Positions 4,121 through 8,147 of a stretch of 64,000 nt of DNA are shown piece by piece. Source of the stretch: an uncultured Chloroflexia bacterium (GTDB taxonomy: Bacteria; Chloroflexota; Anaerolineae; CG2-30-64-16). How positions within the stretch are numbered: position 1 is the first letter of the stretch; each line of letters begins with the position of its first letter. The notes under the pieces were generated by a model. It did not search any database. It saw nothing but the letters and a program-made list of their open reading frames with translations, and was not told where the DNA came from. The stretch covers positions 1,312,001 through 1,376,000 of the forward strand of contig CAVZDU010000001.1 of NCBI GenBank assembly GCA_963774265.1, written 5' to 3'. Made by a program: the position numbers and the translations under genes.

Positions 4121-5422
4121 CAGGGTGATTTCATAGTGCGGGTGCGCCGAATAAATGCAGGGCGCGTTGCGGATGGGCTGCGTAGCAACGGGTGGCGGCG
4201 GCGAGATTGCTCCAACCGTGGAAGCGCAGGGTGGAGATGACGGCATTGCGAATGGCCGCCAGGGCTTGGGCTGCGGCGCCGGTATGCACTTGACAGCGAT
4301 CTTCACCGAAGGTCCCGTCCCGCACGTAGTGCAGGCGATTCTCGATGGTCCAGTGGCCGCGCCAGACCTGCTCCAACTGGTCCGGACCCGCCCAGGCGGC
4401 CGGCAAACTGGTCAACCCATAAGTGACCTCGGTTTCGTATTTGCCGGTGCGCTCGTGAATGCGGCGGCAAGTGCGCCGCAGCACTTGGGCTACGCCTGGC
4501 CAAGTCAGATATGCATTCAGGGCCGTGGTCGTGACCAGTGTCCGCCGCTCCCAGCGCCCATGCGCCTTGTCGGTCGTACGGTGGGACGCGCACTCGCCCG
4601 ATTGGCGCGGCAGCGGTGGTTCGTCAAAGACCAACTGGGCGGCCCAGTAGAGCGTCGGCTGATTCTTCTTGAGGATCATCAGGTAGTGGCCCCCCTGATC
4701 CAGGATTTGTTGGGCGAGGTGGCGCTGCGTCAGCAGGGCATCCATCGTGGTGATGGTGCCGGTCAGATCGCGACCGGCCAACAAGATCGGAACGGCCGTG
4801 ATCTCATTGGTTTTGACATCCACGGCCGCTTGGCCCAGGACATAGGCGCTCTCATGGCGCACGAGACTGACCAGAAAGGTATGCTGCCCGTGGGCGCTGG
4901 CCCCGCGCACATCCTTGCCGTCGACCGCCTGGGCGCGCAGCACCTGACCCTGGCGGAGCCGAATGGCGCCGCAGGTGACATCCGCCTGATCGAGCGCCTG
5001 ATGGTACGCCGCCACTTGCTGCTCCAGGCTGTACATGTCGATGTGGGCCACCAACCGCCGCCAGGTCGCCGCACTGGGCAGGCGGGGACAGGCCGGCTGC
5101 AGGGTGGTCAACAGCTCGCTGCGCTGGTCACGCGCCCAACCGACCATCGCCAGCACGCTCGTTTGGCCGGCTGCCATTGCCGCCGCCAGCAACGCCAACA
5201 GATACGTCCAGGCAAAGCGGCGGCCGCGGGTACAGCGAAAGTCAGGAACTTGGCTCAGGTAGGCCAGCAAGGTAGACTGCAGTGGATCCATCGGGACGAA
5301 CCTCCTTGTGATTGCTGTCACTGAGATTCTAACCGATGGATCCTTGCCTGGCCCACGTGTGGATGCCGAATTGCCACAAGCGCTGCTACCTGCCGCCTCG
5401 GCCGCAACATGACTTCGCCCTG
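4121..5422 (-). mobile_element. ISAs1-family insertion sequence, apparently complete (1302 bp)
   Basis: Terminal IRs cagggtgatttcatagtgcgg (4121-4141) and, as reverse complement, cagggcgaagtcatgttgcgg (5402-5422), 16/21 identical; direct repeat cctgtaatt at 4112-4120 and 5423-5431. Confidence 0.93.
4131..5291 (-). CDS. ISAs1-family DDE transposase
   Basis: VPDFR N-terminus; AVDGK, KTNEI, TMDAL and HWTIENRLHYVRD-x-TFGED motifs; ATG at 5291 preceded by AAGGAGG. Confidence 0.93.
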   Translation of the reverse strand: MDPLQSTLLAYLSQVPDFRCTRGRRFAWTYLLALLAAAMAAGQTSVLAMVGWARDQRSELLTTLQPACPRLPSAATWRRLVAHIDMYSLEQQVAAYHQALDQADVTCGAIRLRQGQVLRAQAVDGKDVRGASAHGQHTFLVSLVRHESAYVLGQAAVDVKTNEITAVPILLAGRDLTGTITTMDALLTQRHLAQQILDQGGHYLMILKKNQPTLYWAAQLVFDEPPLPRQSGECASHRTTDKAHGRWERRTLVTTTALNAYLTWPGVAQVLRRTCRRIHERTGKYETEVTYGLTSLPAAWAGPDQLEQVWRGHWTIENRLHYVRDGTFGEDRCQVHTGAAAQALAAIRNAVISTLRFHGWSNLAAATRCYAAHPQRALHLFGAPAL

Positions 5423-5430
5423 CCTGTAAT

Positions 5431-5458
5431 TTGACACACCTTCTGCAAAGAGTAGAAT
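5431..5458 (+). promoter_or_regulatory. sigma70-type promoter for the corA leader
   Basis: TTGACA-16 nt-TAGAAT. Confidence 0.65.
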
Positions 5459-5464
5459 ATTCTA

Positions 5465-5843
5465 ACATCGTGTGACTGCCAACCAATGAAGCGGTGTAAC
5501 GAGTGAACTGGGAGATTTCGCTCCCAAGGATGCATCAAACAAGGTCATGGATAACGATACAACACCTGGTAGTAGTACCAACAGCGCTGACGGCGATAGT
5601 TCGACCGGCAGCAAACCTGAACATAGGGACCGGCCTGTTCCCGGCCACCTCGCAGTGACCCCACACCGGGCGTAATCGCCTCCGTTGGGCCTCCGCTGTG
5701 CGGTGGCCGACGAGTTTCAGGCTCTCCCTGCTAATCGACTAAAACCAAACAAATCCGGTCGCCGTGCCCTTGCATGACACCGGCTAACGCGCGTGTCTTG
5801 ATCGCGCCTTAGCCGTTCGCGGCAGGGACCGACAGGAGGAACC
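5465..5843 (+). promoter_or_regulatory. long structured 5' leader of corA (candidate cis-regulatory RNA or attenuator)
   Basis: About 380 nt non-coding; helices cggccacc/ggtggccg, cctgaa/ttcagg, cggctaa/ttagccg, and cggtc/gaccg abutting the AGGAGG RBS. Confidence 0.5.
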
Positions 5844-6773
5844 ATGATCACGATCTACAAGACCGGGGAACAGGGCCTGGAGGTCCTCGAAGAAATCACC
5901 AAGGGCTGCTGGATTAGTGTTATTGATCCGACGCCTGAGGAGCTGGCTCGGTTGCGCGAATTAAGCGTGCCCTCCGAATTCATCACCTACCCGCTGGACC
6001 TGGATGAGCGGCCCCGCGTCGAACGCGAGGATGGTGAGACCATGATCCTGCTGCGTGCACCCTTCTATTCAGGCCCGAATACAGATGTGCCATTCACGAC
6101 CATCCCGATGGGGATTGTGATGGATGGACAATGGATCATGACCGTTTGCCGGCACGATAACGACTTGCTGCGCGAGTTGGCTGCGGGGAAGATCCGGGGG
6201 TTATCCACCGCCAAACGCAATCGGTTTATCCTTCAGGTGCTCCTTGCGGCGGCAAGCAAGTACTTGCTTTATCTTCGTGAGATCAATCGCACTGTCGATA
6301 ACCTGGAGGATCAACTCCAGATGTCGATGCAAAACCGCGAGTTATTGGGGTTGCTGAAATATCAGAAGAGCCTGGTGTATTTTACTACGGCGCTGAAGGC
6401 CAACGAGCTCATGATGGAGCGCCTGCATCGGTCGGGCTTCTTTCGCACCTACCCGGATGACGAAGACTTGCTCGAGGACGTTCTGACGGAAAACCAGCAG
6501 GCCATCGAAATGACGAACATCGCCAGCAACATTCTCAGTTCGATGATGGATGCCTTCGCTTCGATTATTTCGAACAACGTGAATGCGGTCATGAAGTTCC
6601 TGGCTGCCGCAACCATCGTGGTTGCCCTGCCGACGCTCATCGCGAGCCTTTTCGGCATGAACGTACCGCTGCCGTTTCAGGACCACCCGTTAGGATTTGT
6701 GTTTGTGCTCGTTGCGGCAGTGGGGGTGTCCGCGATCGTAACCCGGCTGTTCGTGAAGCGAGGCTGGTTCTGA
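5844..6773 (+). CDS. corA: CorA-family magnesium transporter
   Basis: FGMNV signature; LDLDERPRVE; two C-terminal TM helices; KRGWF end. Confidence 0.9.
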   Translation: MITIYKTGEQGLEVLEEITKGCWISVIDPTPEELARLRELSVPSEFITYPLDLDERPRVEREDGETMILLRAPFYSGPNTDVPFTTIPMGIVMDGQWIMTVCRHDNDLLRELAAGKIRGLSTAKRNRFILQVLLAAASKYLLYLREINRTVDNLEDQLQMSMQNRELLGLLKYQKSLVYFTTALKANELMMERLHRSGFFRTYPDDEDLLEDVLTENQQAIEMTNIASNILSSMMDAFASIISNNVNAVMKFLAAATIVVALPTLIASLFGMNVPLPFQDHPLGFVFVLVAAVGVSAIVTRLFVKRGWF

Positions 6774-6792
6774 TAAGAGTGTGGCGCTGAGA

Positions 6793-8147
6793 TCAGTCGT
6801 TTAGCGCATCGAGCGCCTTGTCGAGTGCTGCCAACCGTTGGCTGACCAATTCCAGGCCCAGTTGCGCTGCTTGCCGCACTTCCTGTCGAGGATGGCCCAG
6901 ATGGGTGCGGTAAGCCTCTTCGGCTCGTTCGGTGAGGCGCCGCCACGTCTTCAGTGTTGCCAAATCTGCTGACGTCCAGTCATCCTCGGTCTGGAGGCTG
7001 GCCTGTAAAGAGGCCGTCAGTGCGGCAAGCCTTTCGCGTTGCACGAGCGGATCGAGCGCGCCACCGGCGCGCACTCGTGGCGGCACTACGAAAATGATCC
7101 CGTCGGCTGCATGGGTGTATAACACCGGCGCGGCCCAACTGCGGTCGCCCGGGTGCAGGACTGATAGCATGCTTCGTGCGTAAGCTACCGCCACGTCTAC
7201 TTGTCCCGCGCCATCGCCAACGCACAGCCGTTTGTAGAACTCCCGCGCGAAGATCGCTGCAGCTTTGTCGGCTATCACAAACTGCATTGCGACCACGGCC
7301 GGTACGCCGTAACGCACCAACTGCGGTGCAAGGCCGGTGAACGCCCGGCCGTCATCCGTCTGCCCGCTCTCGCACACGTTGAGCAGCGCAAGCTTGATTG
7401 AACGGTAGTTGACCGCCAAACGCGCCAATGCGTCGCCATCAATCCAGTCGGGCGCGCCGCCCGGCTCGTTCAGCCCCAGGTAGCCTCGGCCATCGATAAA
7501 GCCGCCATGGCCTCCAAAATGGACGATGTGGTAGTTGCCCACGAGGAGGGCGTCGGCCAGGTCGGCTCGCGTCACGGCGCCGTCAAGCGTGCGCACCCGG
7601 AGTGCGCCGTCGGTCGCCCCAGCCACCTGCTCCACGTTGCGTCTTTCCTGCGCCAGATCCAAATCAGGCGTTGCAGGGAGCACTAGCAGCAGTTCGATGG
7701 GGAGCTCAGCGCCCTGTTCGGCAAGGCTGCCAAAGCGATCAGCCTGGTCGAAGTAGCGCACCAACGGAGTGGACGGGGAGGTGGCGAAGGTGTAGTTCCG
7801 CTCTGGGTCGTGAAGCAGTTCCCACGGCCAGGCGGCGATTTCTGGTGCGTCGATGGTCAGCCGGATGCGCAGCCCCATGGCTGCGCGCTCCGCGCGATCC
7901 CACGCCACACGCAGATGGGCGCGTATTGGGGCAGGAAAGACCCAGTCAAACAGGAGGGTGCCCGCCTTGGTGAGAATCTCCGGCGGCGCAGGTGTGGGCG
8001 CCACGGTCGCGCACGAGCGGCTGTGAGAGCCACAGGCGGTGGGGGCAGGACAGCCGAGGTGCGGCCAATGCCTGCTGCCAACGCTGTCAGCGCATATCCG
8101 CCCGGCTGCCGCTCTCCGATGTTGAGGGTGAAGTCCTCGTAGCGCAC
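6793..8147 (-). pseudogene. CHAT-domain (caspase-like) protein, split by a frameshift near 8005-8020
   Basis: N-terminus MRYEDFTLNI (8147, AGGA RBS) is in a different frame from the body carrying WPWELL, VHFGGHG, LNVCESG and PAVVAMQF; may be an assembly indel. Confidence 0.7.

Follow-up and report, generated by a model that had tools for sequence, protein, structure and literature searches.

A conserved leader RNA with an embedded short reading frame upstream of corA in one family of Anaerolineae: probably a new magnesium-sensing control element

RNA leaders control magnesium homeostasis both in Firmicutes, through the M-box, and in enterobacteria, through the mgtA and corA leaders, which carry upstream open reading frames (uORFs). 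The M-box was identified by its occurrence before non-homologous Mg2+ transport genes, and gene associations of this type have marked real riboswitches before. The enterobacterial mgtA leader combines a riboswitch with a leader ORF, mgtL, the Pro codons of which sense proline or EF-P. In the trp and erm attenuators, the uORF overlaps one strand of a set of alternative helices, and the position of the ribosome decides the downstream fold.

The combination of RNA structure and a short leader ORF in the enterobacterial mgtA leader is covered in passages of PMC3641672 and PMC6460261. For the corA leader of Salmonella and E. coli, sections of PMC5314796 and PMC11552253 describe sensing of intracellular Mg2+, mutually exclusive conformations and Rho-dependent termination, and a section of PMC11552253 relates corL translation inversely to corA expression. 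A gamma-proteobacterial 'corA motif' is described in a part of PMC6429828.

In the window analyzed here (the whole stretch of 64,000 nucleotides; all features below are on the + strand), corA occupies positions 5844-6773 (309 aa, with the GMN motif; Pfam PF01544 CorA, E 3.1e-54) and is preceded by a leader of about 375 nt, counted from a predicted transcription start near 5465. Judged from its sequence, this leader is of a functionally known kind, the Mg2+ transporter leaders that join alternative RNA structure with a uORF, and is a member of no described family. Like the corA/corL leader, it is a long leader before corA with a conserved uORF inside (39 of 40 leaders here), but it comes from another phylum, its uORF ends in the hairpin loop of a junction, it also precedes mgtE-type genes, and Rho-dependent termination is the output of the enterobacterial system; there is also no Rfam match at E <= 10, with the proviso that the gamma-proteobacterial corA motif may not be among the Rfam 15 models. 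With the mgtA/mgtL leader it has in common RNA structure and a short ORF before a Mg2+ transporter gene, whereas cmscan returned no match to that leader, and the peptide feature is an acidic-x-x-P-G/S-S pattern at the N-terminus, not a set of Pro codons. The resemblance to the M-box lies in a multi-helix cis element placed before unrelated Mg2+ transporter families (corA, mgtE), which largely replaces the M-box phylogenetically (the latter was found in just 2 of the 37 genomes of the family, elsewhere in those genomes); unlike the M-box, the element does not match RF00380, contains a conserved and apparently translated uORF, and has no terminator hairpin with a U tract. As in the trp and erm attenuators, the uORF overlaps a strand of alternative helices, but there is no intrinsic terminator and no regulatory run of codons for a single amino acid, and the stop codon lies in a hairpin loop. 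All functions ascribed to the leader below are those that we infer from sequence analysis and modelling.

Transcription of the leader is predicted to start from a promoter, TTGACA-16-TAGAAT (5431-5458), with 11 of 12 matches to the sigma-70-like consensus, in agreement with an earlier note on this DNA that had placed a good promoter about 380 nt from the corA ribosome-binding site. This is the sole promoter-like site on the + strand of the region 5200-5900, both strands of which together contain two such sites versus 0.3 expected, and its -35 and -10 boxes are alignable in most relatives. Upstream lies an ISAs1-type insertion sequence (4121-5422; DDE_Tnp_1 and DDE_Tnp_1_assoc), present in four full copies in the genome, which ends 8 nt short of the -35 box. 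Given this boundary at 5422 and the alignment of promoter and leader with those of relatives that lack the insertion sequence, both are native and not part of the inserted DNA. The search for terminator-like sites in 5200-5900 yielded none. Among sequencing runs, those listed as containing the stretch 5424-6400 were DNA runs only, with shares of at most 0.13, and no RNA run. The leader ends in the corA Shine-Dalgarno (SD) sequence AGGAGG (5834-5839), which is mostly unpaired in the minimum free energy (MFE) structure.

The MFE of the region 5465-5860 is -149.9 kcal/mol (z -3.4), and none of 100 shuffled sequences was as stable. RNAalifold applied to a plain MAFFT alignment of the central part of the leader recovered only 8 pairs; the consensus was therefore built from the MFE structures of individual sequences and a covariance model. 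In the independent core MFE folds of 24 leaders, one shared plan recurs: a junction closed by helix H6, with the arms H3, H4 and H5. The covariance model of this core domain (5613-5740), denoted R1, was built from the 24 seed sequences and consists of 152 positions with 30 pairs; its match in the window's own sequence (G000:C1:1317613-1317740) scores 84.6 bits.

A 5' hairpin, H1 (GGGAG/CUCCC, 5510-5514 / 5521-5525), precedes the uORF; it is present in the MFE structure, and 3 of its 5 pairs are changed on both sides in the alignment denoted A1. Immediately 3' of H1, the alignments reveal a conserved box, AAGGAUG (5526-5532), the AUG of which is out of frame with the uORF; the box is missing from the clade whose uORF begins with MS(N/S/T)D. 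Within the uORF, hairpin H2 (GCUGACGG/CCGGCAGC, 5586-5593 / 5605-5612) is again part of the MFE structure and has changes on both sides in 5 of 6 pairs (A1). The closing helix of the core, H6, pairs a purine-rich stretch of the uORF (UAGGGA at 5624-5629, CAGCAG in most relatives) with positions 5725-5730 of a CU-rich block (CUCUCCCUGCUAAUC in the window); 5 of its 10 pairs are changed on both sides in the R1 alignment of 40 sequences. The block as a whole (GGCUCUCCCUGCUAAUC, 5720-5736; CUGCUCCUGCUGUCAU in relatives) forms the 3' strand of H6 and is a candidate anti-SD sequence. H3 is a small hairpin, GCCGG/CCGGC. H4, GGGCG-UAAU-CGCCU (5668-5681; arms 5668-5672 / 5677-5681), is found in the MFE structure and holds the uORF stop codon in its loop; all 4 of its pairs show changes on both sides, yet only 68.5% of cells pair. 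No other core helix is as well supported as the post-stop hairpin H5 (CGUUGG+CCUCCGC / GCGGUGG+CCGACG, 5683-5696 / 5700-5712), in which changes on both sides affect 10 of 12 pairs. Between the core and the SD, the MFE structure contains a further hairpin domain (5756-5831); this is the second hairpin of the earlier note (cggtc/gaccg, tgcc/ggca, cggctaa/ttagccg), which is recovered as described there; 3 nt separate its end from AGGAGG. It differs in length and sequence among members of the family, where the distance from the uORF stop to the transporter start ranges from 116 to 633 nt, and it is not conserved family-wide.

In the R1 alignment (40 distinct sequences, 30 pairs), which was fitted to the structure that it tests and is thus biased in favor of that structure, 83.1% of cells are paired versus 78.5 +/- 0.6 in shuffles, 20 of 30 pairs are changed on both sides versus 12.3 +/- 1.9, and the covariation score of the core is 0.234 versus 0.166; none of 500 shuffles attained any of these values. 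When the pairing partners were slid as a control, pairing fell to 33-63%, and a 25-sequence core alignment yields a similar covariation picture. For H1 and H2, the MAFFT alignment A1, which was not fitted to a structure, gave 73.3% pairing versus 65.0 +/- 1.5 and a covariation score of 0.247 versus 0.127, again unmatched by any of 500 shuffles. Covariation among relatives, which had been named among the checks on the leader, is thus found beyond 500 shuffles both in the core and in H1/H2.

The earlier note had taken a single extended rod for the fold of this region. In the window's own sequence, the inner part of this rod is indeed present in the MFE structures of both 5465-5860 and the core taken alone, with the 3' half of the uORF engaged in rod-specific pairing as an alternative to H5: cggccacc/ggtggccg (5642-5649 with 5702-5709), cgcagtg/cgctgtg (5651-5657 with 5694-5700) and ccca/tggg. 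The base of the rod turned out differently, RNAfold giving UAGGGA/UCCCUG (5624-5629 / 5725-5730) and GGCCUG../..CAGGCU in place of ggcag/ctgct and cctgaa/ttcagg. The rod is predicted to be 11.1 kcal/mol more stable than H5 in the own sequence; the comparison comes out thermodynamically in its favor in 34 of 40 leaders (median -5.2 kcal/mol). Covariation, assessed for one register of the rod (columns 69-75 with 125-132 of alignment A5), is not detectable: 66.9% of cells are paired versus 66.3 +/- 1.5 in shuffles, and 204 of 500 shuffles reach this value. Because H5 covaries and the tested register of the rod does not, we prefer the junction. The rod as the fold is accordingly not upheld, its backing being thermodynamic only; the four-way junction with a separate post-stop H5 is the fold that comparative evidence indicates to be supported by evolution, and the rod may at most be an alternative state, though a plausible one.

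The uORF comprises 42 codons and a TAA (MDNDTTPGSSTNSADGDSSTGSKPEHRDRPVPGHLAVTPHRA, 5547-5675), with the stop codon (5673-5675) inside the GGGCG/CGCCU loop of H4, that is, in an apical loop, where it had been placed before. As also noticed earlier, its ribosome-binding site is weak, consisting of AAGG only, 2 nt upstream of the AUG. Of 40 distinct leaders, 39 contain a homologous uORF; the remaining one, G003, has a replaced 5' part and lacks the start codon. In 31 of 40 leaders, the stop codon occupies one and the same column of the H4 loop, and in 8 it falls elsewhere in the core (columns 53, 67, 70, 77 or 139). The aligned start-to-stop distances, 120-177 nt, fall into 10 length classes that all preserve the frame, and the uORF is 37-60 codons long in 37 of 39 leaders and 31 codons long in the other two. 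The lengths of the noncoding spacer to the transporter start, taken modulo 3, are distributed 9/8/7. Across the 38 scored leaders, the reading frame contains no stops, whereas the two remaining frames contain 36 and 91.

The conserved feature of the peptide is an N-terminal motif, M-(D/S)-x-(D/E)-x-x-P-(G/S)-S (5547-5579), in which the Ser codon is nearly always AGU; the Pro residues counted at first inspection are not what is conserved. In codons 2-9, differences are concentrated at third positions (pN/pS 0.44 and 0.58 in frame versus 0.92-2.66 in shifted frames), and Ser and Thr at fixed N-terminal positions are encoded by all four UCN and all four ACN codons, respectively, a pattern to be expected if the leader peptide is translated and its motif has a function. 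Outside the N-terminus, the peptide is poorly conserved. Over the whole uORF, dN/dS is 0.25-1.02 versus 0.03-0.17 for corA (17 of 19 pairs were used, the 2 pairs with L013 being left out), changes are spread evenly across codon positions, and synonymous divergence is lower than that of corA in 17 of the 17 valid pairs. With dN/dS this high and synonymous sites evolving slower than those of corA, substitution patterns indicate that, over most of the uORF, the constraint is on the RNA and on the openness of the frame and not on the protein. No Pfam match and no hydrophobic segment were found in the uORF product. That the short ORF matters, as the earlier note had supposed, is thus borne out by its retention in 39 of 40 leaders and the coding-type signature at its N-terminus, and the uORF is reasonably likely to be translated and to take part in the mechanism.

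At the DNA level, the leader has a match in every one of 7 congeneric genomes, with an identity of about 70%. In an nhmmer profile screen of corA upstream regions (80 genome and 80 metagenome loci), 20 of 160 regions matched, and the leader was found only at loci where CorA is at least about 66% identical to that of the window. R1 matches the 25 known leaders (the 24 seeds and L014) and none of 75 other corA loci from more distant Anaerolineae. Conservation, another check proposed at the outset, is evident within the window's GTDB family (Chloroflexota, Anaerolineae), where R1 has a single match in each of 34 of the 37 genomes; the misses are G008 (65% complete), G011 (80%) and G018 (97%), and the GTDB order comprises the same 37 genomes. 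Among 147 genomes of other families, a class-wide sample, R1 has no credible match; one match of 31 bits, in G076, lies within an ABC permease ORF and was rejected. The element is confined to one family of uncultured Anaerolineae, a narrow range.

A scan of positions 4500-7500 detected no Rfam 15 family in the leader at E <= 10. In particular, the NiCo riboswitch (czcD) model has no match at this threshold, and the M-box model RF00380 (gathering score 44 bits) has none at E <= 10 in 4500-7500 and none in the window's own genome. The absence of recognizable M-box and NiCo consensus, first noted by eye, is therefore confirmed by the Rfam scan, and the proposed novelty of the leader stands. No report of such a leader was found in the literature on Chloroflexi, corA and riboswitches, and the literature retrieved on corA leaders with a short ORF and Mg2+ dealt only with enterobacteria or with general ncRNA discovery. 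Distant corA leaders, denoted 'type-2', likewise match no Rfam family at the gathering score (20 loci) or at E <= 1 (6 loci).

Of the 40 leaders, 28 stand before corA, 5 before mgtE and 7 before a gene for a protein with PRC-barrel, MgtE_N and CBS domains, in different genera. The 5 mgtE genes encode full-length proteins (MgtE_N, CBS and the MgtE membrane domain). Of these 12 non-corA cases, 6 were assigned by Pfam and the other 6 by evident similarity. The occurrence of the same element upstream of corA, mgtE and PRC-MgtE_N-CBS genes, which is the argument by which the M-box was identified, ties it to Mg2+ homeostasis and substantiates the magnesium link suggested earlier from corA alone. With considerable confidence, we regard the leader as a putative cis-regulatory element tied to Mg2+ transport. 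Taken with its conservation and covariation, the leader appears to be a real, conserved and uncatalogued cis-regulatory element, very probably for Mg2+ homeostasis, and probably a new magnesium-sensing control element.

The arrangement of the leader suggests how it could work. We propose that the corA mRNA has 5465-5843 as its 5' leader and that this is a family-specific cis-element in which translation of the uORF would unzip the junction and the freed CU-rich strand would sequester the SD; the Mg2+ signal, polarity and output of this model are ones that we infer, and we regard the model as a whole as about evenly poised between right and wrong. According to the model, H1 would be followed by a weakly initiated uORF, about 40-60 codons long, with its N-terminal motif, the second half of which would form one side of the four-way junction, supplying the 5' strand of H6 and H3 and ending in the H4 loop; H5 and the CU-rich 3' strand of H6 would follow. 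When the uORF is not fully translated, the junction or the rod would be folded, the CU-rich strand would be locked in H6 and the transporter SD would be accessible. A ribosome on the uORF would open H6, H3 and half of H4, and would by necessity free the CU-rich strand, which might then pair with the SD region and reduce transporter synthesis. High Mg2+ would thus allow efficient uORF translation and lead to repression; at low Mg2+, translation would be poor or stalled, the junction folded, the SD free and the transporter expressed. This polarity is proposed because both translation efficiency and RNA folding depend on free Mg2+, and by analogy with corL/corA and mgtL/mgtA of enterobacteria.

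Sequestration of the SD by the CU-rich block, as the output of this scheme, is a tentative and somewhat doubtful component. In many lineages, the block is complementary to the SD region of the downstream gene: over 10 bp in leaders L192 and L195, over 12 bp in L209, over 14 bp in L211 and over 11 bp in L222; in the latter, the block (CCCCUUUU) and the SD (AAGGGGGG) both differ from the usual sequences. The CU-rich blocks pair better with their own SD (-16.03 kcal/mol) than with those of other leaders (-14.97 kcal/mol; permutation p 0.0097, n=39, in a test that ignores phylogeny). Only a weak match is seen in the L024 clade and in the window itself, where UCCCUGC (5725-5731) instead complements GCAGGGA (5822-5828). 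In a simple ranking against other leader windows, the CU-SD duplex is unremarkable, with ranks 2-46 of about 42-80. Forcing the uORF to be unpaired in silico produced no consistent shift in SD pairing in 24 leaders. When the CU-rich block was forced to pair upstream versus downstream, the energies were nearly equal (median -1.7 kcal/mol), with SD pairing of 0.67 versus 0.74 (higher in 13 cases, lower in 5 and equal in 10). The folding simulations yielded no clean switch. A run of five or more T between the core and the start codon is absent in 38 of 40 leaders; together with the lack of terminator-like sites in 5200-5900, this indicates that the leader has no intrinsic terminator.

A more specific version of the model, which we consider unlikely, assigns the sensing to the peptide: the N-terminal sequence (D/S)-x-(D/E)-x-x-P-(G/S)-S would stall or slow the ribosome in a Mg2+-dependent manner before the junction, so that the fold, and with it corA or mgtE expression, would be set by where the ribosome stands and not by metal binding to the RNA alone. 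Other Anaerolineae have corA leaders of a different type, which contain terminators, and a related motif, D-(D/E)-P-L-S-x-S-K-K-P-P-stop, is found in these. If the stalling reading holds, its presence there would make the peptide the shared sensing part, and the motif would be an ancient sensor reused with two RNA output platforms.

Several other explanations of the leader have to be weighed against control by uORF translation. The four-way junction could be a direct Mg2+ riboswitch that binds Mg2+ as the M-box does, with compaction setting expression and the uORF auxiliary or tolerated. The multi-helix junction covaries and its joining sequences are conserved, corA and mgtE are a typical M-box gene set, 35 of 37 family genomes lack the M-box itself, and the slower evolution of synonymous sites in the uORF than in corA (17 of 17 pairs) points to RNA-level constraint over most of the ORF. 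This explanation has to contend, however, with an ORF that 39 of 40 leaders keep open, its frame intact through 10 length classes, with the peptide-level selection at its N-terminus, and with the absence, in 38 of 40 leaders, of a terminator-like U run as an expression platform; we judge it improbable. The two readings are mutually compatible, as in the enterobacterial mgtA leader, where riboswitch and leader ORF are combined.

Rho-dependent attenuation, with the C-rich, G-poor 3' half of the uORF serving as a rut site that is hidden by ribosomes or by the rod and leads, when exposed, to termination before the transporter gene, would fit the lack of an intrinsic terminator and the location of the strongest C>G 40-nt window in the 3' part of the uORF in most leaders. 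Passages of PMC5314796 and PMC11552253 provide the precedent of the Salmonella and E. coli corA leaders. The window's own genome encodes Rho-like ORFs (365.7 bits and 332.8 + 131.7 bits), but neither match reaches the NCBIfam cut-off of 509 bits. The CU-rich block with its linker, considered as a rut site, was rejected, as the C>G maximum overlaps it in 7 of 40 leaders versus 22% expected from position, which also counts against this mechanism, and we hold it to be quite improbable. It is very improbable that the short ORF is an independent small-protein gene, the rest of the leader being a structured, constitutive 5' UTR without sensing. The ORF is conserved and has an N-terminal coding signature, but its dN/dS over the whole length (0.25-1.02) is far from that of corA (0.03-0.17), its product has neither a Pfam match nor a hydrophobic segment, and every copy of it is joined to this RNA domain and precedes a Mg2+ transport gene, whichever the family of the latter. 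Control by uORF translation coupled to junction folding remains our preferred reading of the leader.

The leader would add an RNA family to the catalogues and improve the annotation of Anaerolineae, a class abundant in digesters and sediments. With about 300 nt, it would provide a test case for the coupling of uORF translation and junction folding. For the family that carries it, the element would represent an independent solution to Mg2+ control, in which one RNA-plus-uORF module stands before three Mg2+ genes that are unrelated or differ in construction.

The new leader varies among relatives in its reading frames and, in one genome, in its 5' part. A second uORF, located 3' of the core between the CU-rich 3' strand of the core (CU block) and corA, is present in the upstream loci L024, L116, L117, L118, L119 and L120 and their relatives. 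In the L024 clade, this frame has a conserved start region, GGAGGCAGC(C/U)(A/U)UGAAGCG, and terminates at a UGA that overlaps the AUG of corA (AUGA), which suggests translational coupling between the second uORF and corA. The AUG within the conserved AAGGAUG box opens yet another frame, of 40-42 codons, that overlaps the uORF in several congeneric genomes (5530-5658 in the window, plus strand, +1 frame); in other genera, this AUG lies directly 5' of a stop codon (AUG-UAG or AUG-UAA). In genome G003 (L014 / L211), the core domain and corA are retained, and the 5' part, with hairpins H1 and H2 and the uORF start, is replaced by unrelated sequence; this leader contains no homologous uORF start.

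In the window, an insertion sequence of the ISAs1 family (4121-5422; ORF at about 4131-5291, minus strand, with DDE_Tnp_1 and DDE_Tnp_1_assoc domains) precedes the corA locus; this copy ends at 5422, 8 nt short of the corA promoter's -35 box. The genome contains four full copies of this element, which are 95-100% identical, along with several fragments. On the other side, corA is convergent with a gene for a CHAT-domain protein (6793-8004, minus strand), and the stop codons of the two genes are separated by 19 nt.

Other Anaerolineae, with CorA proteins 56-64% identical, carry a second leader upstream of corA that is distinct from that of the window. It occupies about 300 nt upstream of corA at loci L058, L062, L065, L070, L088, L080, L053, L055, L068, L094, L121, L114 and L057 (alignment A6). 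It combines a conserved box (CAUACCAACGCGC..CUGAACGCAGUC) with a terminator-like hairpin of 12 bp (GCUUCCCGG..CCGGGAAGC) that covaries and has a U run; on the 3' side of these come a Shine-Dalgarno sequence (SD) and an sORF of about 20 codons; a small hairpin (GGGCAGUUGCCC) lies between the sORF and the SD of corA. The sORF ends in D-(D/E)-P-L-S-x-S-K-K-P-P-stop, with synonymous variation at third codon positions. Searches against Rfam gave no match to this leader, M-box included, at the gathering score (20 loci) or at E <= 1 (6 loci).

A conserved pseudo-ORF upstream of corA in Anaerolinea thermolimosa (L047) and Bellilinea caldifistulae (L073) is explained by a tmRNA gene that adjoins corA upstream on the opposite strand (622-1013 and 701-1094 of the respective loci, both minus strand).

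Among the 37 genomes of the family, only two M-box (RF00380) matches were detected, L224 in G025 and L225 in G011; the latter is among the three family genomes that lack a match to the model of the new leader.

At seven loci (L199, L201, L206, L210, L212, L220 and L222), the gene downstream of the new leader encodes a protein of about 420-440 aa that combines PRC-barrel, MgtE_N and CBS domains; none of these ORFs includes an MgtE membrane domain. The products may be soluble Mg2+-sensing proteins controlled by the same leader.
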